Of a stretch of 64,000 nt of DNA, positions 5,667-55,343 are shown one piece after another. Within the stretch, counting starts at the first letter, position 1; every line of letters begins with the position of its first letter. This DNA is from Chloroflexota bacterium (GTDB taxonomy: Bacteria > Chloroflexota > Anaerolineae > UBA1429). Below the pieces are notes generated by a model. The model was not told the DNA's origin. It searched no databases and saw nothing but the letters and a program-made list of their open reading frames with translations. The DNA lies in the NCBI GenBank assembly GCA_034722245.1, contig JAYENT010000043.1:93-64092 (forward strand), in the 5' to 3' direction. Both the position numbers and the translations under genes were made by a program.

Positions 5667-6566
5667 GTGGATGAGTATGCGGAGATCGTTCGTCCCCTCG
5701 TAGAGCTGGAGCCCCAGTTCGAGTTCTTTGTGGGAATCGACTCGGACGGTTGTGTTTTCGATACCATGGAGATCAAGCACAAAGAGTGTTTCATTCCCAA
5801 TATCATCAAGCATTGGGGCTTGCAGCCCATCTCCAAGTACGCACGGGAGGCGGCGGAATTTGTCAACCTCTACTCCAAATGGCGAGGGATAAACAGGTGG
5901 CCCGCGCTACTGAAGGTCTTTGAGCTGTTACGGGAGCGTCCAGAGGTGCAAAGGCGGCAGGCCACGATTCCTGACACGCCTCAAATTGAGGCGTTTGTCG
6001 CCTCGGATAGGCCTAAGAGCAACGATTCCCTGACTGAGTTGGTGGCAGAGACGCAGGATCCAGAGCTGATCAAGGCCCTGCGTTGGAGTGAGGCCGTCAA
6101 TGCCACCATCGCCGATATGGTGCATGGCGTGGCTCCGTTTCCCTATGCACGGGAGAGCATCGAGTTGATCTCGCGCTCTGCTGATGCCATCGTGGTCTCA
6201 CAGACGCCTGTAGAAGCCCTGGTCCGTGAGTGGAAGGAGCACGACATAAACGAGTATGTAGAGGTGATCGCGGGCCAGGAAATGGGCACCAAGGCTGAGC
6301 ATCTTCGCTTGGCGTCCGAGGGCAAGTACACGCCCGAACACAAGCTGATGATCGGCGATGCCCCTGGCGATCTGGCGGCCGCTCGGGCCAACGAGGCTTT
6401 CTTCTTCCCTGTGAATCCGGGGCACGAAGAGGAGAGTTGGCAACGTTTCTACGAGGAAGCCTTTGCGCAGTTTATTGCTGGAACCTATGGAGGGCAGTAC
6501 GAGGCCGCGCTGATCTCGGACTTTGAAAAGGCCTTACCTGAGACGCCCCCCTGGAAGAGGAGATAG
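5667..6566 (+). CDS. HAD superfamily hydrolase (phosphatase-like)
   Basis: DxD motif in FVGIDSDGCVFDT and a late GDAPGD motif. The GTG at 5667 lies 9 nt after AGGAGG. The track start at 5562 sits upstream of the predicted transcription start. Confidence 0.6.
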   Translation: MDEYAEIVRPLVELEPQFEFFVGIDSDGCVFDTMEIKHKECFIPNIIKHWGLQPISKYAREAAEFVNLYSKWRGINRWPALLKVFELLRERPEVQRRQATIPDTPQIEAFVASDRPKSNDSLTELVAETQDPELIKALRWSEAVNATIADMVHGVAPFPYARESIELISRSADAIVVSQTPVEALVREWKEHDINEYVEVIAGQEMGTKAEHLRLASEGKYTPEHKLMIGDAPGDLAAARANEAFFFPVNPGHEEESWQRFYEEAFAQFIAGTYGGQYEAALISDFEKALPETPPWKRR

Positions 6567-7814
6567 ATGGTTATTGGTAAAGGATATACGGATCGCTTTT
6601 TGACGGAACAAGAGGTCGAGGAAGTCTTCGAGAAGGGACTGGGCGAGATCGACGTTGACGGCAAGCGGGTTGTGGTGATCATGCCCGATGGCACACGCAG
6701 CGCGCCAGTGCCTCTTTGCTTTCGTCTATTCGTCGAACTGCTCGGGGGTAGAGTCGATACTCTAGATTTTTTGATCGCGCTGGGCACTCACCCCTCAATG
6801 GACGAGGAAGCCATATGCGAGCACTTTGGTATCACGCCTGAGGAGCGTCGGGAAGAATATGCGGAAGTTGGCATCTATAATCACGATTGGCAGGAGGGGC
6901 TGGAAGAGATTGGCGTCATTCCCGCAGCCAAAAGCCGGGCTCTGAGCGATGGTCTGCTGGAGCAGGACATAGTCGTGGAGATCAATGGTCGCCTCCTAGA
7001 CTATGATCACATCATTATCTGTGGCCCCGTCTTCCCCCACGAGATTGCCGGTTTCTCGGGCGGCAACAAGTACTTTTTTCCGGGTGTCAGCGGCCCCGAC
7101 ATCATCGATTTTACGCATTGGTTAGGTGCCTTGATTGGGAACGTCAATACCATCGGCCATCAGAATACGCCAGTACGTCGGGCGCTGGACGAAGCGGCGC
7201 GTTTTATCCACGTTCCCGCATCTTGTTTTAGTATGGTGGTCAAGGGAGACGAGGATTTGGCGGGACTGTATTTCGGTACGCCCGAGGCATCACAGGCCGA
7301 GGCGGCCAAGCTTTCGGCGAGGGTGAACGTGACCTATGTGGACCACACCTACGATACCGTGCTGGCCGTTATGCCCGATCTTTATGACGATATATGGACC
7401 GCTGGCAAGGGCATGTACAAAACGGAACCCATCGTGGCCGATGGAGGGAAAGTGATCATCTATGCTCCTCATATCGATGAGATCTCCTACACCCACGGGG
7501 CGATCCTTGATCGCATTGGCTATCATGTGCGTGACTATTTCTTGGCGCGCATGGACGAGTTCGCCGACGTCCCACGGATGGTCATGGCTCACGCGACGCA
7601 TGTAAAGGGCGCGGGGACGTACGAGGAGGGCGAGGAAAGACCGCGTGTCCACGTGGCCCTGGCTACGGGGGTGCCCAGGGAACGGTGTGAGCGCGTCGAT
7701 TTGGGCTATGTGGATCCGGAGACTATCGAACCGCGCGAATGGATGGGACGAGAAGAAGAGGGCATACTCGTGGTGCCTCGTGCGGGGGAAGTTCTGTACC
7801 GATTGAAGACATAG
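6567..7814 (+). CDS. LarA-like (DUF2088) nickel-pincer-dependent 2-hydroxyacid racemase/epimerase family protein
   Basis: VVVIMPDGTRSAP and PHEIAGFSGGNKYFFPG (the His ... GG-x-K region typical of LarA). Its start abuts the HAD stop codon. Confidence 0.7.
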   Translation: MVIGKGYTDRFLTEQEVEEVFEKGLGEIDVDGKRVVVIMPDGTRSAPVPLCFRLFVELLGGRVDTLDFLIALGTHPSMDEEAICEHFGITPEERREEYAEVGIYNHDWQEGLEEIGVIPAAKSRALSDGLLEQDIVVEINGRLLDYDHIIICGPVFPHEIAGFSGGNKYFFPGVSGPDIIDFTHWLGALIGNVNTIGHQNTPVRRALDEAARFIHVPASCFSMVVKGDEDLAGLYFGTPEASQAEAAKLSARVNVTYVDHTYDTVLAVMPDLYDDIWTAGKGMYKTEPIVADGGKVIIYAPHIDEISYTHGAILDRIGYHVRDYFLARMDEFADVPRMVMAHATHVKGAGTYEEGEERPRVHVALATGVPRERCERVDLGYVDPETIEPREWMGREEEGILVVPRAGEVLYRLKT

Positions 7815-12161: not shown

Positions 12162-13267
12162 ATATGGACATTGGAGAAGTGGCTGGGCATCTCGAGGTCA
12201 AGAATTCTATCAGTATTGGTATTGTGGCCGGATTGATCGCGTCCATGGTGCTCTTTGGTGTGGCTTTGACCTCTTTGATAAGTGCCAGACAAGAGCGGGC
12301 TGTGTTTGAAGGGGCGTATGAATCCACTATCTCCTCCATCGAGCATATTCGCGCGGCGCAGCAGAGTCCGGAGGCGCTACGTCAGCGCATCGCGGAGGCT
12401 GAAGGGGATTTGGAGGCCTTACTGGCGACTGTGCCGACGCGAAGAGAAGTCCGTGCGGAAATCGTAAGATACTATACGTACGCGAGTAACGTGGACGCTG
12501 AGCTTGTGCGTATAGGCAAGGTAGCCACGAGTTCCAAGGAGAAAGTGGAGGGGATCTACGAGAGGCAGCGTTTTCTCCTGGAAGCGCAGGGGATGCCAGA
12601 TAATTTGATGCGCTTTCTTGCTCGTGTGGGAAGTGGGCCTTACAGCACTTTCATTCTTGCTAACATACGGATAAGGCCCAATGGGCCGGCGACGGCCGAC
12701 GCCGATCTGGAGGTCTTTTCCTCGGAGCTCTCTGGGGTTGCGTCCCCGTTCGCACCCTCCGCGGTGCGCATGTCCTCAAAGGAGGGGAACTTGGGGCTAG
12801 AAGACGAGGCGGTAGTGGCGTTGAGCGACGATCTTCAGGAAGCCATCATCGCAGGACGTTGGGAGGATGTCGTGTCGCTGGGTGAGAGATTCCTGGGACT
12901 GGGCATGGGTTCTGAGGACGTCAAAGCCGCCATATATCAAGGCTATGTGAGGGTGGGATACGATCTCTTGTCCCAGGGTGCGTTTGCAGAGGCCGGGGAG
13001 CATTTCCAGAGGGCGCTGGATATCGTGCCGCACGGCCAGGAAGCACAGGAAGGTCTGGAGGCTTTGGGGGGCGTGGGAGGAACGGAAGAGGGGGATCCCG
13101 GCAGTGATATGCTGTCTGATTCCAAGGTGCACGTCGTGCGCCGGGGCGAGTCGCTCTCGGTTCTCGCGCAACGTTACAATACGACGGTTCAGGAGATCAT
13201 GGAATTGAACGATCTGCATCGCACCACCATCTATGTCGGTCAGCAAATCCTTGTGCCTGCACGCTGA
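12158..13267 (+). CDS. PilO-like membrane protein fused to a TPR-like region and a C-terminal LysM domain
   Basis: TM helix, coiled coil and an alpha/beta region reminiscent of PilO. The C-terminal LysM reads HVVRRGESLSVLAQRYNTTVQEIMELNDL. Its ATG overlaps the upstream stop codon (ATGA). Confidence 0.55.
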   Translation: MNMDIGEVAGHLEVKNSISIGIVAGLIASMVLFGVALTSLISARQERAVFEGAYESTISSIEHIRAAQQSPEALRQRIAEAEGDLEALLATVPTRREVRAEIVRYYTYASNVDAELVRIGKVATSSKEKVEGIYERQRFLLEAQGMPDNLMRFLARVGSGPYSTFILANIRIRPNGPATADADLEVFSSELSGVASPFAPSAVRMSSKEGNLGLEDEAVVALSDDLQEAIIAGRWEDVVSLGERFLGLGMGSEDVKAAIYQGYVRVGYDLLSQGAFAEAGEHFQRALDIVPHGQEAQEGLEALGGVGGTEEGDPGSDMLSDSKVHVVRRGESLSVLAQRYNTTVQEIMELNDLHRTTIYVGQQILVPAR

Positions 13268-13276
13268 GGGAATACT

Positions 13277-14542
13277 ATGAGGTCGCATCTGTGGTCGTTG
13301 CGGGAGGTGGGGCTAGTGAGGGCGAAAAAGAGGCTCTTTTGTTTGTTGTTGGTGTTTCTTGTCACGGCGGGCGCTACCGTACCTCAATGTGCGGCGGCGC
13401 GCGCGCGCCCTGTCGAGGAGCCTGCTTCCCGGGTTGGGAGCTATGGGGTGGAGGGAACGCCTCCCCCCTCTTCTTACCTACTGCGGGCGCAACAGGCGGA
13501 TGCAACACCCACGCTCACAGAGGAAGAGAGATTGCAGGAACTCGTCGAGGAACTGGACGCTGCTTGGGATGCGCTCGACTGGGAGGAGGTACTGCGCCTC
13601 ATAGACGAGATCATGGCCATTGACCCTGACTATGAAGATATAGAAGAGAGAAAATACGATGCCCATATAGGCTATGGCTATCAGTTGTTCACTGAGGGGG
13701 ACTGTTCCGGTGCTTTGGAACAATTTCGCGCGGCGCTGGAGTTGGAGCCAGAGGGAGAGGAGGCCCTGTCGGGATTGGAACTTTTGGAGCGTTACTGTGC
13801 TACTCCCCTCCCTCCGACCGCCACGCCCACCGCGGGCCCCACGTTGGCGCCGACAGGAACGCCTCAGGCCATCACCTCCCCCATCACCTATACAGTGCAG
13901 CCCGGAGACACCCTCTATAGCCTGGCGAAGCGATATGATACCACGGTGCAGGCCATCATGCAGGCAAACGGTATGATGAGTTACCTGATATATGTGGACG
14001 AGGTGATCTGGATTCCGCCCAGTGGTGCGGCTCCCCCCGGCCCCATTGTGCACATCGTGCAGCCGGGGGAGACGCTCTATTCCATAGCGCAGCAGTACGG
14101 AACCACCGTCTGGGCCATTAGGATGGCCAATAATCTCCCGGGATATACTATTTGGGCCTATAGAGCCCTATTCATTCCCACCACCGCCCAGCCCGGCGCC
14201 ATCATACATATTGTACAGCCGGGAGAGACTCTCTATTCCATCGCCAATCGATACGACACGACGGTTCCTCTGCTCATGATGGCGAACGGCCTTCGCACTT
14301 ATGAGATCCGTGTCTATCAGCGGCTGTTGATTCCCTCGGAGGATTGGGCTACCTGGCCGCCTGCTTGGCTTCCGGGACATCCTGTCACGCCACCGTACGG
14401 TCCCGCCACATACGTAGTGAAGCGGGGAGATACGCTGTACAGCATAGCGCGGCGTTTCGGGACCACGGTGGAGGCCCTCATGGCGGCAAATGGCCTATCC
14501 AGTTCTCGTATCCTGGCGGGCATGCGGCTGCGGATACCATAA
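13277..14542 (+). CDS. Secreted TPR-like protein with four LysM peptidoglycan-binding domains
   Basis: Signal-peptide-like N-terminus and a Pro/Thr linker. Four LysM units: YTVQPGDTLYSLAKRY, HIVQPGETLYSIAQQY, HIVQPGETLYSIANRY and YVVKRGDTLYSIARRF. Confidence 0.75.
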   Translation: MRSHLWSLREVGLVRAKKRLFCLLLVFLVTAGATVPQCAAARARPVEEPASRVGSYGVEGTPPPSSYLLRAQQADATPTLTEEERLQELVEELDAAWDALDWEEVLRLIDEIMAIDPDYEDIEERKYDAHIGYGYQLFTEGDCSGALEQFRAALELEPEGEEALSGLELLERYCATPLPPTATPTAGPTLAPTGTPQAITSPITYTVQPGDTLYSLAKRYDTTVQAIMQANGMMSYLIYVDEVIWIPPSGAAPPGPIVHIVQPGETLYSIAQQYGTTVWAIRMANNLPGYTIWAYRALFIPTTAQPGAIIHIVQPGETLYSIANRYDTTVPLLMMANGLRTYEIRVYQRLLIPSEDWATWPPAWLPGHPVTPPYGPATYVVKRGDTLYSIARRFGTTVEALMAANGLSSSRILAGMRLRIP

Positions 14543-44810: not shown

Positions 44811-44861
44811 GTGGAATATGCTACGCATATTCCTTGGGAGAATCGCCTTGCGATTCTCCAC
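44811..44861 (-). repeat. 51-nt twin-hairpin palindromic element, full copy, intergenic
   Basis: GTGGAATATGC-TAC-GCATATTCC-TTG-GGAGAATCGC-CTT-GCGATTCTCC-AC. Reverse complement of the copies at 51696 and 54646. Starts 53 nt upstream of the polA start. Confidence 0.85.
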
Positions 44862-48264: not shown

Positions 48265-48289
48265 CCTCTCTTTTCATAAAGGGCTGTCC

Positions 48290-48317
48290 GTGGGAGAATC
48301 GCAAAGCGATTCTCCAC
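48290..48317 (+). repeat. Solo half-element (GGAGAATCGC-AAA-GCGATTCTCC hairpin only), intergenic
   Basis: GTGGGAGAATCGCAAAGCGATTCTCCAC lies between the ferredoxin start and the GNAT stop. Confidence 0.75.
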
Positions 48318-48321
48318 TTAC

Positions 48322-49458
48322 TCAAACGGCTTTGCTATAAACCTGCCAGCGCTTGTATATGCGCGCTCCCAAGCGCTGCGCCAGTCTTGGCGTCATGGGA
48401 TTATCAGCCCCCGTGATGGACATGTCCAGCCAGCGATAGCCCTTGGCCAGGGCGCGTTGACACATCTCGTGGAGCATAAGAGCCGCCACGCCGCGTCCCC
48501 AGTACCAGGGAAGGACGAGGATGCTCTTGATGCAGAGACACTCGGGGCGTCTGCGCATGGCGCACCAGGCCCGAAGCTTGTCCCAGGGATACCGCAACCC
48601 GTTGGCGTGTATTAGGACCTCGTTAAAGTTGGGTAGCCCGAGCAAAAAGCCCACCTCGCGGCCGTCTATTGTGCCGAAAAGCACCAATTCGGGATCAATG
48701 ATCTCCTCTATACCCCTTGCCAGGGACTCCAGTCTGTCGCGATCCCATGCCACGTGATCGGGGAGTACCCTTAAGGTCTGGTTGAGCAGATGCACCACGC
48801 GGCTCACTTCGCCGTCCCAGTCGTCCGCATCCGCACCGCGAACGGACGCTCGCCCACGCTCGCGTACCTTGTTAGCCACACGGTGGAGTTTGGCTGCTGG
48901 GCCCTCTGGGTCGGTAGCTGCTTCCAGAGACGCTTCGAAGGCGATGTTTTGCTCTCTGCCAGGCACGAACCCGTAGCGGTCAACGAATTCTCGATAGTAG
49001 GGCGGCGTGTGTCCGCAAAAGAGCGTCGGCGGACGGTCGTACCCCTCGAGGAGGATGCCGTATCCGTCCTCATAGTCAAGGTTGAAAGGACCATAGAGGT
49101 TGTCCAACCCGTGACGGCGGGCCCACGTCGCAGCATGGTCCCACAGGGCGGCGGCGACCTCATACTCCCGAACGTAGTGATTGAAACCGAAGATGCAGTC
49201 GCGGCCCCCCAGTTGCTGGTTCCGTGCATCATCTTTGGCGCAGCAGATCGTCCCCACAGGCTGGTTCCCTTCCCAGGCGATGAAAAGCTCTGCCGTGGCG
49301 TGTTGGAACCACGGGCCGTGCTCAGGATCCAGGCGCTTGTCCCACTCGCTGAGTATGGGGGGGACCCACAGCGGGTCGCCACGAAAGACGCGCCAGGCAA
49401 AGGTCAGGAAAAGTCGACGCTCCCGCGGCGTATTGACTGGTCGAACCGCCAAAGGCAT
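48322..49458 (-). CDS. GNAT family N-acetyltransferase (large, about 378 aa)
   Basis: Acetyl-CoA loop-like WYWGRGVAALM near the C-terminus. Overall GNAT-type call made by eye. Confidence 0.55.
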   Translation of the reverse strand: MPLAVRPVNTPRERRLFLTFAWRVFRGDPLWVPPILSEWDKRLDPEHGPWFQHATAELFIAWEGNQPVGTICCAKDDARNQQLGGRDCIFGFNHYVREYEVAAALWDHAATWARRHGLDNLYGPFNLDYEDGYGILLEGYDRPPTLFCGHTPPYYREFVDRYGFVPGREQNIAFEASLEAATDPEGPAAKLHRVANKVRERGRASVRGADADDWDGEVSRVVHLLNQTLRVLPDHVAWDRDRLESLARGIEEIIDPELVLFGTIDGREVGFLLGLPNFNEVLIHANGLRYPWDKLRAWCAMRRRPECLCIKSILVLPWYWGRGVAALMLHEMCQRALAKGYRWLDMSITGADNPMTPRLAQRLGARIYKRWQVYSKAV

Positions 49459-50990: not shown

Positions 50991-52004
50991 ATGAAAAAAT
51001 CGTGTCTGTTTCAGGTTTTTCTATTCGCCGTTCTTGTCTTCGTGGCGACTATGTTTCTGCGTGGCTACATCAGGGGCTGTCGCGGCTCACAGGAAGATGC
51101 GGCGGTCGTCGGCCGTCGCGTTGGGGGCTCGGTTTCCTCGCAGGACGGGCAAGGAGAGGACGCCGATGAATCAAGAGCCAGGGGAACGGGCATAGAGGGC
51201 CTTTCCTCGCTTCCGGTCAGTAGTCTTATGATTGATGCGGCCCGGGTGCGGGGCCTGGCGGTCAGCGAACGCTTCTTTTTTGTTTCATCCTTCGATCCCA
51301 ATCGGCGTGTGGGCTATTTGTACAAAATCGACCGTGAAAGTCGCGGCGTGGCCCAAATTCGTACAGTGAAAGAGGATGGGCGATATCAACTGGGGGGACT
51401 CTATGTCAGCGCTGATTCCCTGCTGGTCCCCCTGGCCGGTGACGAGACCGATCCCGTTAGCTCCATCCTCACCTTGGATACCCGCTACTTGGAGATTCAA
51501 GATGCGTTCAGCGTCGGTTGTCGTATACAGGCTGTGGCTCGGGGGGCAGATGGTTTGATCTATGGCTATAGTCCCGATGCGAGCGTTTTCTATGCCTGGA
51601 CGCCCACTGGAGAGGAGGTGCGCAAAAGGACAATCTATACCGAGGCGGAATACCATGATGTGGAGTTTTTGCAGGGCAGCCTCGTCTGTGCGGGGGTGGA
51701 GAATCGCAAAGCGACTCTCCCAGGGAATATGCGTAGTATATTCCACGTGGACGGGCAAGGCGGGGTCATAGACGTCATCGATCCCCAGACTTTCACTTTG
51801 CTCGTTCGCCACCGGTGCTACACCCGCACGCCGGACCAGCAGTGGGTCACCAGCCGGGGGTTCGCCTTCTTCGACGGCATGTTCTACTTTGTGCCCGACG
51901 AAGGCCACTTTCCTACATTAATGACGTATGTGCTGGACGGGGTCACCCTTTCCGAGTACGTTCCCAGCGTGGGTCAGGGAGTCGAGTCTCTGGGAGTTCA
52001 GTGA
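50991..52004 (+). CDS. Hypothetical membrane-anchored protein, possibly beta-propeller; carries an in-frame 51-nt palindromic element
   Basis: ATG after GGGAGGGGGGAGAGAG, and an N-terminal TM helix (LFQVFLFAVLVFVATMFL). No family recognised. Confidence 0.5.
   Translation: MKKSCLFQVFLFAVLVFVATMFLRGYIRGCRGSQEDAAVVGRRVGGSVSSQDGQGEDADESRARGTGIEGLSSLPVSSLMIDAARVRGLAVSERFFFVSSFDPNRRVGYLYKIDRESRGVAQIRTVKEDGRYQLGGLYVSADSLLVPLAGDETDPVSSILTLDTRYLEIQDAFSVGCRIQAVARGADGLIYGYSPDASVFYAWTPTGEEVRKRTIYTEAEYHDVEFLQGSLVCAGVENRKATLPGNMRSIFHVDGQGGVIDVIDPQTFTLLVRHRCYTRTPDQQWVTSRGFAFFDGMFYFVPDEGHFPTLMTYVLDGVTLSEYVPSVGQGVESLGVQ
51696..51746 (+). repeat. 51-nt twin-hairpin palindromic element, full copy, in-frame inside the hypothetical CDS
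   Basis: GT-GGAGAATCGC-AAA-GCGACTCTCC-CAG-GGAATATGC-GTA-GTATATTCC-AC. Translated as VENRKATLPGNMRSIFH. Confidence 0.85.
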
Positions 52005-53176: not shown

Positions 53177-53363
53177 GGTTGCCCTCCTCGGTAGTGTGTG
53201 CGTCTTCCTCTATTATGTAGCGGGTGTGGAATCCTGGCAAAGGGCTATAAGCTGTCGTCGCTTTCAGATTGTAATGGTCGGTGGTTGCTGTTATGCTAGA
53301 TTTCAGGATGTTCACTGTTGTCACGATGATTGATCCATACCGCATTACGTGAGGAGGACGCAT

Positions 53364-55343
53364 ATGTCTGCGAGAGAGCTTACGCCCCTGTCGCTGGATA
53401 GAGTAGAGATCAATGGCCCGTTCTGGGGCCACCGGCAGGCCGTCAACCGGGAGGTGACGCTTCGCGCCGAATACCAGCACTGTAAAGAGACGGGGCGCAT
53501 TGACGCCTGGAAGCTGGATTGGGAGCCAGGGATGCCCAACCCGCCGCACCACTTTTGGGATTCCGACGTGGCCAAGTGGCTGGAGGCCGTGGGCTATACC
53601 CTGGCGACGCATCCGGACGAGGAACTGAAAGCACGCGCCGACGAGGTCATTGATATGATCGCTGAGGCACAGCAGGACGATGGCTATCTCAATATTCACT
53701 TCACTACCGTAGAACCCAGGAATCGCTGGGCGAATCTGCGCGACATGCACGAATTATATTGTGCCGGCCACCTGATGGAGGCCGCCGTGGCCTACTATGA
53801 GGGCACGGGAGATCGCCAGTTGCTGGACGTGCTTTGCCGCTACGCCGATTATATCGACTCGGTGTTTGGGCCCGGAGAGGGCCAAAAGCGAGGCTACCCT
53901 GGTCACGAGGAGATCGAACTGGCGCTGGTCAAGCTTTATCGTGCCACAGGCAAGGCCCGCTATCTCGATCTGGCTACGTTCTTCATCGATGAGCGGGGAC
54001 GTCAGCCCCACTATTTTGATATAGAGGCCAGAAGGCGCGGCGAGGGTCCGGGCGACTACCGCTTTGGAACTTACGACTATGCCCAGGCCCATCTGCCCGT
54101 TCGTGAGCAGACCACGGCGGAGGGCCATGCGGTCAGGGCCATGTATCTTTATAGTGGTATGGCCGACGTGGCGGCCGAGACCGGGGATGATAGCCTGCTG
54201 GCCGCCTGCGAACGTCTGTGGGAGAACGTGACGCAGCGCCGTATGTACGTCACCGGCGGCGTCGGTTCGTCCTCTCACGGGGAGCGCTTCACCATCGATT
54301 ACGACCTGCCCAACGATCTGGCCTATGCAGAGACTTGTGCGGCCATCGGCCTCGTATTCTGGGCGCATCGCATGCTGCAGTTTGAGGGCGATGGGAGGTA
54401 CGCTGACGTCATGGAGCGCGCTCTGTACAATGGCGTCCTGAGCGGCGTGTCCCTCAAAGGCGACAAATTCTTTTACGCCAATCCGCTGGAGGCGATTCCC
54501 GCGCTATACGAGGCGCGCCCCGATCTCTTTGGCAGGGATGCCATCTCTTACACGCGACAGGGCTGGTTCAGCTGTGCGTGCTGCCCGCCCAACCTGGCGC
54601 GCCTCATCGCCTCCCTCGGACAATATATCTACTCGGAAAGCGAGGGTGGAGAATCGCAAAGCGATTCTCCCAAGGAATATGCTGCGCATATTCCCGAGGG
54701 GATATACGTGCACCTGTACGTCGGGGGCAGCGGAACCTTTGACGTCGACGGACGGGAGGTTGTCCTCTCCCAGGAGACGCGTTATCCATGGGAAGGTGAG
54801 GTGACGATTACCGTGCAGCCCGAGGCGCGGGTGCGCTTCCCTTTGGCTCTGCGCATACCGGGGTGGAGCCGGGGGGCGACGCTGCAGGTCAACGGCCAAC
54901 CCGTGGACGTGGCGTCACAGTTGGAGCGGGGCTATGTGAAGCTCGAGCGCGTGTGGGAGCCGGGCGACCGCGTCGTGCTCGATCTCCCCATGCCCGTGGA
55001 GCGTGTGGAGGCGCACCCATCGGTTGCTGAGGATTGTGGACGTGTGGCCATCCAAAGGGGCCCCCTCGTCTACTGCCTGGAGCAGGTGGACAATGGTCCC
55101 AACCTGCGCGGTATCGTCCTTCCTGCCGATGCCGAACTGCAGGCGACCTTTAAGGAGGGTCTTCTCGGCGGGGTAGTGGCCATCGAGGGCGAGGCCAAGA
55201 GGCGAGACCGGGGGCAATGGGACAACGCTCTGTATAGGACAGTACCGTCCGCGTCGGAGACAGTGCCCATCAGGGCCATCCCCTACTATGCCTGGGCCAA
55301 CCGAGAGCCTGGTGAGATGCTGGTGTGGATTCGGCAGGGGTAG
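53364..55343 (+). CDS. Glycoside hydrolase family 127 (DUF1680, beta-L-arabinofuranosidase-like)
   Basis: Typical GH127 sequence with the conserved CACCPPN cysteine motif. The ATG at 53364 lies 7 nt after GAGGAGG. Confidence 0.85.
   Translation: MSARELTPLSLDRVEINGPFWGHRQAVNREVTLRAEYQHCKETGRIDAWKLDWEPGMPNPPHHFWDSDVAKWLEAVGYTLATHPDEELKARADEVIDMIAEAQQDDGYLNIHFTTVEPRNRWANLRDMHELYCAGHLMEAAVAYYEGTGDRQLLDVLCRYADYIDSVFGPGEGQKRGYPGHEEIELALVKLYRATGKARYLDLATFFIDERGRQPHYFDIEARRRGEGPGDYRFGTYDYAQAHLPVREQTTAEGHAVRAMYLYSGMADVAAETGDDSLLAACERLWENVTQRRMYVTGGVGSSSHGERFTIDYDLPNDLAYAETCAAIGLVFWAHRMLQFEGDGRYADVMERALYNGVLSGVSLKGDKFFYANPLEAIPALYEARPDLFGRDAISYTRQGWFSCACCPPNLARLIASLGQYIYSESEGGESQSDSPKEYAAHIPEGIYVHLYVGGSGTFDVDGREVVLSQETRYPWEGEVTITVQPEARVRFPLALRIPGWSRGATLQVNGQPVDVASQLERGYVKLERVWEPGDRVVLDLPMPVERVEAHPSVAEDCGRVAIQRGPLVYCLEQVDNGPNLRGIVLPADAELQATFKEGLLGGVVAIEGEAKRRDRGQWDNALYRTVPSASETVPIRAIPYYAWANREPGEMLVWIRQG
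54646..54696 (+). repeat. 51-nt twin-hairpin palindromic element, full copy, in-frame inside the GH127 CDS
   Basis: GT-GGAGAATCGC-AAA-GCGATTCTCC-CAA-GGAATATGC-TGC-GCATATTCC-CG. Contributes GGESQSDSPKEYAAHIP. Confidence 0.85.

Follow-up and report, generated by a model that had tools for sequence, protein, structure and literature searches.

The 64,000-nt stretch analysed here (the window; contig JAYENT010000043.1 of the Chloroflexota assembly GCA_034722245.1, whose source is a brine metagenome, runs X1-X4) contains a gene for a DUF6454 protein into which a 51-nt DNA element, consisting of two adjacent stem-loops, appears to have been copied in frame. Further copies are found in a GH127 gene and in two intergenic regions. 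The host gene, the element within it and the other copies in the window are as follows.

50991 to 52004, plus strand: the host gene (ATG start, 337 aa). Its product is a DUF6454 protein for which a membrane helix at the N terminus, a disordered linker and a beta-propeller are predicted.
51696 to 51746, plus strand: full copy of the element inside the DUF6454 gene (70.5 bits with the covariance model described below).
51698 to 51720, plus strand: hairpin 1 of this copy, GGAGAATCGC-AAA-GCGACTCTCC, a 10-bp stem with one A:C mismatch (51703:51715).
51724 to 51744, plus strand: hairpin 2 of this copy, GGAATATGC-GTA-GTATATTCC, a 9-bp stem with one G:U pair (51731:51737).
54646 to 54696, plus strand: full copy in the GH127 gene (open reading frame (ORF) 53349-55343), between the catalytic and the middle domain (72.8 bits).
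44811 to 44861, minus strand: full copy, intergenic, between polA and the alcohol dehydrogenase (ADH) gene.
48287 to 48317, minus strand: half copy (hairpin 1 only), intergenic, between the ferredoxin (Fer4) and GNAT genes (38 bits).

The copy in the DUF6454 gene has the sequence GTGGAGAATCGCAAAGCGACTCTCCCAGGGAATATGCGTAGTATATTCCAC. In the general architecture of the element, a stem of 10 bp is followed by a linker of 3 nt and a stem of 9 bp. Its termini form a 5-bp inverted repeat (GTGGA/TCCAC), and both hairpins are bracketed by GT...AC. Hairpin 1 comprises 23 nt and hairpin 2 comprises 21 nt, both within the 20-40 nt expected for the stem-loop palindrome of a repetitive extragenic palindromic (REP) sequence. 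The two stem substitutions described in the original prediction for the DUF6454 copy are found when it is compared to the other copies. One is T>C at 51715, which results in the A51703:C51715 mismatch in hairpin 1. The other is C>T at 51737, which converts a G:C pair of hairpin 2 into the G51731:U51737 wobble. The computed RNA folding energy of this copy is -21.9 kcal/mol, as compared to -27.4 and -27.9 kcal/mol for two intact copies.

The offset of the DUF6454 copy from the ATG (51696-50991 = 705 = 3x235) places its first nucleotide on a codon boundary, as had been claimed, and the 17 codons are read as VENRKATLPGNMRSIFH. In the GH127 copy, the first nucleotide falls on codon position 2 (offset 1297), and the translation is GESQSDSPKEYAAHIPE, which agrees with the earlier claim that the two genes use different frames. 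Five of the six reading frames of the element are free of stop codons, and among ten family copies 51 of 60 frames are open. In the GH127 frame, the consensus GTA loop of hairpin 2 makes a TAG. The GH127 copy escapes this stop because its hairpin-2 loop is TGC instead of GTA.

The hairpin-1 pattern matches four times in the window, compared to 0.00 matches expected from 100 shuffles. A covariance model (R1), built from ten family members, recovers the three full copies with 70-76 bits (E about 1e-18) and the half copy with 38 bits, and gives no further match with E < 0.1 in the 64 kb. Very few perfect hairpins other than the element copies are present in the window.

The original prediction hinged on the host ORF being a real gene, and this is borne out by its homologs, its synteny, the divergence at its codon positions and a confident structure model. 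There are 22 homologs, several of which match PF20055 (DUF6454), and all are from Chloroflexota or Anaerolineales metagenome bins. One of them is found in a syntenic locus (L068) of the metagenome-assembled genome (MAG) CAZMOW01, with identical gene order: polA, ADH, sulfatase, ferredoxin, major facilitator superfamily (MFS) transporter, DUF6454, PfkB kinase, GH127 and two AP-endonuclease-2 genes. The DUF6454 proteins from the window and from L068 share 68% sequence identity, and the third codon positions of their genes are 56% identical. Because third positions diverge faster than the protein, the gene appears to be under purifying selection. We thus judge the host gene to be intact and not a pseudogene.

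The AlphaFold model of the host protein, computed from the alignment, has a mean predicted local distance difference test (pLDDT) score of 85 and a predicted template modelling (pTM) score of 0.76. It predicts a membrane helix (residues 3-30), a disordered linker (residues 31-63) and an all-beta domain. Among solved structures, glutaminyl cyclases from plants and bacteria, which are beta-propellers (2iwa, 3nol), come closest in fold, with 12-16% identity and a TM-score of 0.68-0.73 on the target. The protein is predicted to be a membrane-anchored beta-propeller. The insert corresponds to residues 236-252 and, in the model, lengthens the turn between the strands at 230-237 and 258-263. Residues 246-253 have a pLDDT below 50 and form the sole low-confidence stretch inside the propeller. 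Peptide stretches of the insert-bearing protein are:

...CAGVENRK...
...IFHVDGQGGVIDVIDPQTFTLLVR

It had been suggested to check orthologs for the presence or absence of the 17 codons. In an alignment of 16 DUF6454 proteins, the 17 residues are missing from 14 of the 15 homologs, including the one from the syntenic locus L068. The homologs run from ...GSLVC(A/S)G directly into (V/A)D..GG(V/I)IDV, and only the protein from the window has the full VENRKATLPGNMRSIFH in between. On the DNA level, TCG GGC | GTA GAC in L068 corresponds to GCG GGG [51 nt] GTG GAC in the window. The one exception (P0007, locus L067) has 27 nt at the very same codon, with the sequence GCAGAGAATACGCGTACCATATTCCAG. This remnant equals the copy from the window minus 24 nt between GAGAAT and GGGAAT, which are the repeated motifs that open each hairpin, and folds at only -0.5 kcal/mol. 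In the source metagenome, a low-depth contig matches both flanks of the DUF6454 site and skips exactly the 51 nt. Its divergence fits an L068-like lineage, and this empty allele was not counted as independent evidence. On these comparisons, the 17 codons are assigned as a lineage-specific insertion into the DUF6454 gene.

The GH127 site is found in several states. The insertion point lies between two domains, with residue 424 as the last in the Pfam match to the catalytic domain and 451 as the first of the middle domain. The window has a full copy, while L070 has a decayed full-length copy (22.7 bits vs 72.8 bits). In L068, only hairpin 1 is found, with 24 nt missing between CCCAAGG and CCCGAGG. 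The site is empty in L069 (AGC GAG GGG GGG ATA TAC), and those GH127 proteins that are more distant all lack the insert as well. In a tree, the four GH127 genes group together with 100% support, and within this clade a nested position of L069 has 66% bootstrap support compared to 9.5% for a basal one. The lineage of L069 with its empty site is thus probably, though weakly, nested within the clade. Possible explanations for its empty site are a precise loss, a second insertion or a basal position of L069.

The cleanest site is that of the intergenic full copy (44811-44861). In this region, L068 has ...GACGACAAC|AGAGATTTT... and the window has ...GACTACAAC[51 nt]AGAGATTTG.... With respect to the empty site ACAAC|AGAGATTT, this is a clean 51-nt insertion without target-site duplication, and the junction ambiguity is at most 2 nt. 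Past the copy, homology with L068 returns further downstream at a common promoter-like sequence. As the intergenic insertion is also exactly 51 nt long, this length is inherent to the element rather than just a consequence of selection in coding sequence. A simple target-site-duplication model was considered and rejected: there is no duplication at this site, and the CGAGGG repeats that flank the GH127 copy are 54 nt apart rather than 51.

Both intergenic copies (44811-44861 and 48287-48317) sit where the gene content differs from L068 (L068:120-330 and L068:4410-4495, respectively). In L068, polA and ADH are separated by an additional aldo-keto reductase gene, and in the window an additional GNAT gene (48322-49458) separates the ferredoxin gene from the MFS gene.

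The remaining two empty sites come from GH106 genes of other genomes. The GH106 orthologs from L006 and L025 share 81% amino acid sequence identity. Each has one 51-nt insert at a site that is empty in the other.

L006:2258-2308: copy in GH106, read as GESQSDSPKEHATHVLQ.
L025:3994-4044: copy in GH106, read as MENREAILPGNGPSTSH, in the same frame as the DUF6454 copy from the window.

In the L025 gene, the 9 nt that open the element (ATGGAGAAT) recur directly after it. Together, five sites have matching empty sites (DUF6454, GH127, intergenic, and GH106 twice), and the copies in DUF6454, GH127 and the two GH106 genes were counted as verified intragenic insertions. Copies were also found inside long ORFs that match an FGGY kinase (L005, read as ...RRIAERFS...) and a PEP-synthase-like protein (L028), but these were not counted, as alignment with PDB structures did not establish them as insertions. 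When all intragenic copies are considered, all three frames are used.

The exact hairpin-1 sequence occurs at 36 loci of genomes and 30 of metagenomes. What follows it in the Anaerolineales MAGs, and also in some of the high-GC contigs from metagenomes, is a 2-3-nt linker and a 9-10-bp second hairpin with a 3-nt loop, usually then AC, as in the window. The invariance of hairpin 1 in this set follows from having searched with it, and variants exist (L033, L041). Hairpin 2 varies in sequence among genomes with its pairing kept, having compensatory changes in 7 of 9 pairs and a covariation score that is reached in 0 of 500 shuffles, a count which is partly circular, as the sequences had been chosen for having a second hairpin.

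We conclude, with a probability of about 85%, that 51696-51746 is a copy of a small non-coding repeated DNA element, a selfish palindromic repeat resembling REPs and Rickettsia palindromic elements (RPEs), which was copied into the DUF6454 gene of a brine member of the Anaerolineales. The argument for a copied nucleotide element rather than a peptide motif is that it occurs in intergenic regions and in unrelated genes, is read in three frames, has five empty sites and conserved hairpins, and decays in coding sequence. The frames, the empty sites and the intergenic copies all fit the original proposal of a mobile, or at least copied, nucleotide element. The insertion into the DUF6454 gene would have been tolerated because its length (3x17) keeps the frame, because it is mostly free of stops and because it landed in a surface loop between propeller strands. 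Being tolerated, it is predicted to result in a full-length protein with 17 extra residues. The element is kept in genes only where it lands in loops or linkers. To judge from the sequences, the element in coding DNA is a passenger, and its hairpins are not maintained there.

Several observations weigh against this conclusion, in addition to the circularity of the covariation count and the origin of the hairpin-1 invariance stated above. Pairwise divergence among the copies is 8-13%, and recent activity is thus unsupported. Those copies that have this hairpin 2 and the read depth of the organism all fall within 10 kb, and the contigs of run X1 have no added copies at the organism's depth at an identity of at least 85%. 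Such clustering looks more like local copying than like genome-wide transposition. Finally, neither a transposase nor another mobilizing gene was found among the 18 of 52 candidate ORFs of the window that were scanned (eight adjoining the copies and ten small ones), none of which encodes a Y1 transposase.

We propose that the element would spread as DNA, in trans, via an enzyme that recognizes hairpins. A single-strand transposase of the HUH/Y1 type, either a REP-associated tyrosine transposase (RAYT) or the TnpA of the IS200/IS605 insertion sequence (IS) family, would be the likeliest mobilizer because the ends are hairpins, the boundaries are precise and no target-site duplication is found. 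This assignment is tentative and open to considerable doubt. It is weakened by the failure to find such a gene among the 18 ORFs scanned, by the lack of a GTAG or CGTC tag at the hairpin ends, by short repeats at several junctions and by the 10-kb confinement of the subtype copies at the organism's depth. Orthologous copies in coding regions lose their hairpins by point changes, and single hairpins by deletion of 24 nt between short direct repeats within the element, and such slippage explains the half copies. Where the flank repeats the element start, as GTGGA does following the DUF6454 copy and ATGGAGAAT following the L025 copy, slippage could plausibly also remove the whole element.

The left flanks of the five sites are GCGGGG, GCGAGG, CCGAGG, TATCGC and ATCTCT, of which three are alike and two are not. 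This similarity may reflect a target preference, for which five sites are too few to decide. In the window, the two coding copies have the hexanucleotides GCGGGG (51690-51695) and GCGAGG (54640-54645) on their left, both of which already exist in the empty sites of relatives, and the corresponding sequence in L006 is CCGAGG.

The alternative that survives best is local copying by template switching, microhomology-mediated repair or gene conversion, in which the hairpins promote stalling and strand switching and no transposing enzyme is involved. This would account for the location of all subtype copies within 10 kb and for the repeats at the junctions (GTGGA after the DUF6454 copy, the 9-nt ATGGAGAAT after the L025 GH106 copy and CGAGGG flanking the GH127 copy). 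Also, the left flanks are GCGRGG or CCGAGG at three of five sites, and slippage between internal repeats accounts for the half copies. However, the 51-nt boundaries are identical at five independent sites in three genomes, the intergenic junction is ambiguous by no more than 2 nt, and the CGAGGG repeats have the wrong spacing (54 nt, not 51). Moreover, a like architecture with differing second hairpins in several MAGs calls for long-range spread. We therefore consider local copying an unlikely explanation for the element, even though it fits the clustering.

A second alternative is that the hairpins are functional cis-elements that coordinate a sugar-utilization cluster, as operators of a dimeric regulator, as stem-loops that stabilize or attenuate an mRNA or as translational pause sites, and that the coding copies are kept for this purpose. 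All four copies are located in one 10-kb carbohydrate cluster (ADH, sulfatase, MFS transporter, PfkB kinase, GH127) and are oriented with local transcription. The 10-bp palindrome of hairpin 1 is perfect, hairpin 2 shows covariation among genomes, and several hosts in other MAGs are also sugar enzymes (GH106, FGGY kinase). The syntenic cluster in L068 is, however, devoid of three of the four copies and has just a half copy in GH127. In orthologs, the coding copies decay and the changes are not compensated (22.7 bits in L070; -0.5 kcal/mol in L067), and this, together with the state of the L068 cluster, makes a regulatory role of the coding copies unlikely. The hairpins are not followed by a terminator-like T-run, have no Rfam match even at E = 10, and their positions within genes bear no relation to gene starts. 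This explanation is thus regarded as highly improbable.

The idea that the 17 residues are a conserved peptide module common to GH127 and DUF6454, with the DNA similarity secondary to protein selection, would fit two copies that are both in frame and stop-free, but it can be dismissed because VENRKATLPGNMRSIFH and GESQSDSPKEYAAHIPE are read from different frames and have zero residues in common, identical DNA is also found in intergenic regions, a third frame is used in other MAGs, nearly all homologs lack the peptide and model confidence is low at the insert.

The copied-element interpretation has precedents. RPEs are described, in the accounts of Ogata et al. 2000 given in PMC10969869 and PMC3733652, as in-frame inserts in unrelated functional genes. 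As far as these accounts go, RPEs and the 51-nt element are alike in being short palindromic repeats that add a peptide in frame, are also found in intergenic regions and appear compatible with the protein fold. In-frame insertion in intact genes with insert-free orthologs, as is characteristic of RPEs, was found for DUF6454, GH127 and the two GH106 genes. However, according to the same accounts, RPE-1 is about 150 bp long (families about 100-150 nt) and its copies encode a conserved peptide in one frame, whereas the element described here has 51 nt and uses three frames. RPE hosts are obligate intracellular alphaproteobacteria, while the host here is a free-living member of the Chloroflexota from brine. 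There is no sequence similarity to RPEs, and the element thus belongs to none of their families.

Intragenic REP dimers that encode about 20-30 residues have been reported from Opitutus, Thauera and Rickettsia (Di Nocera et al. 2013, PMC3733652), and GTAG-type REPs are known in Chloroflexi (PMC3733652). REPs and bacterial interspersed mosaic elements (BIMEs) share with the 51-nt element the stem-loop units of 20-25 nt, present singly or as dimers, and a species-specific sequence with the hairpin kept. REPs are expected to have a GTAG or CGTC tetranucleotide at one end of the palindrome (PMC3733652). The element ends in GT|GGAG and CC|AC, GTAG is confined to the loop of hairpin 2, where some copies have it, and L005 is the only copy with CGTC in front of hairpin 1. 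The hairpins of the element are tandem and dissimilar, whereas a REPIN consists of two inverted copies of one REP. Finally, REPs are mobilized by RAYTs and are expected to have a high genomic copy number and to flank a RAYT gene. In the one 64-kb contig covered here there are four copies of the element, the copy number looks low, and no RAYT gene was seen among the scanned ORFs.

Two other classes of small mobile elements share some features. Palindrome-associated transposable elements (PATEs), which are miniature IS200/IS605 derivatives, also have hairpins at both ends, precise ends and no target-site duplication. However, they are usually at least 100 nt long and have a recognizable parent IS, whereas for the 51-nt element no parent IS, TnpA or conserved 5' target tetranucleotide is shown. 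[quoted passage not shown] Rfam gave no match at gathering score over the window and none at E <= 10 over 51600-51850, and a literature search for the 10-mer stem returned unrelated primers only and no repeat. The behavior is that of RPEs and intragenic REPs, and the element itself is new and outside both families.

Some further observations concern the distribution of the family. Exact hairpin 1 (GGAGAATCGC-N3-GCGATTCTCC) is also found in MAGs of several other phyla, almost always beside other hairpins. Examples are from Lachnospiraceae (L001, L009, L026, L031), Spirochaetes (L003, L023, L037, L047) and a "Thermotogae" MAG (L022, L051, L064). It is multi-copy in some MAGs, e.g., with four loci each in two Lachnospiraceae MAGs. 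The occurrence across phyla is either chance convergence or indicates a widely shared module. Viral contigs in IMG/VR do not contain exact hairpin 1. The metagenome contig L041 (93-1843) has about seven distinct hairpin modules of 10-11 bp in 1.8 kb, including variants of hairpin 1. Several of these modules are joined by the linker CCTAGCAA, and related modules occur in BIME-like clusters. In L027, a single minus-strand ORF (6093-7253) encodes both an FmdE and a TrmO_N domain, and a copy of the element lies between the two at about residue 217. It may be located within, or join, two former genes. Elsewhere in the window, at 13115-14469, five direct repeats of ~74 nt (62-74% identical, 156-759 nt apart) are found in coding sequence and resemble repeated protein-domain units.

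Colonization of genes in frame by palindromic repeats is best documented in Rickettsia and a few REP-rich proteobacteria, and has been known since 2000. The case reported here is unusually clean, having five empty sites, an exact length of 51 nt (17 codons), the use of three frames and visible decay intermediates, and comes from an uncultured, little-studied lineage of the Chloroflexota. Lineage-specific 17-residue loops can mislead the annotation of orthology, domains and structure. On the other hand, the inserts mark surface positions that tolerate insertions, and the family could be used for seeking the hairpin-recognizing mobilizing enzyme. It is tempting to speculate, although the odds are rather against it, that hypersaline Anaerolineales carry a gene-adapted family of 51-nt double hairpins, 17 codons long and nearly stop-free in all frames, with precise ends and footprint-free insertion and excision, routinely adding and removing 17-residue loops in enzymes, and that hairpin 1 is perhaps shared far beyond the Chloroflexota. 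If this is true, the family would parallel the RPE phenomenon in free-living bacteria and would act in protein evolution as a natural mutagen that inserts loops.

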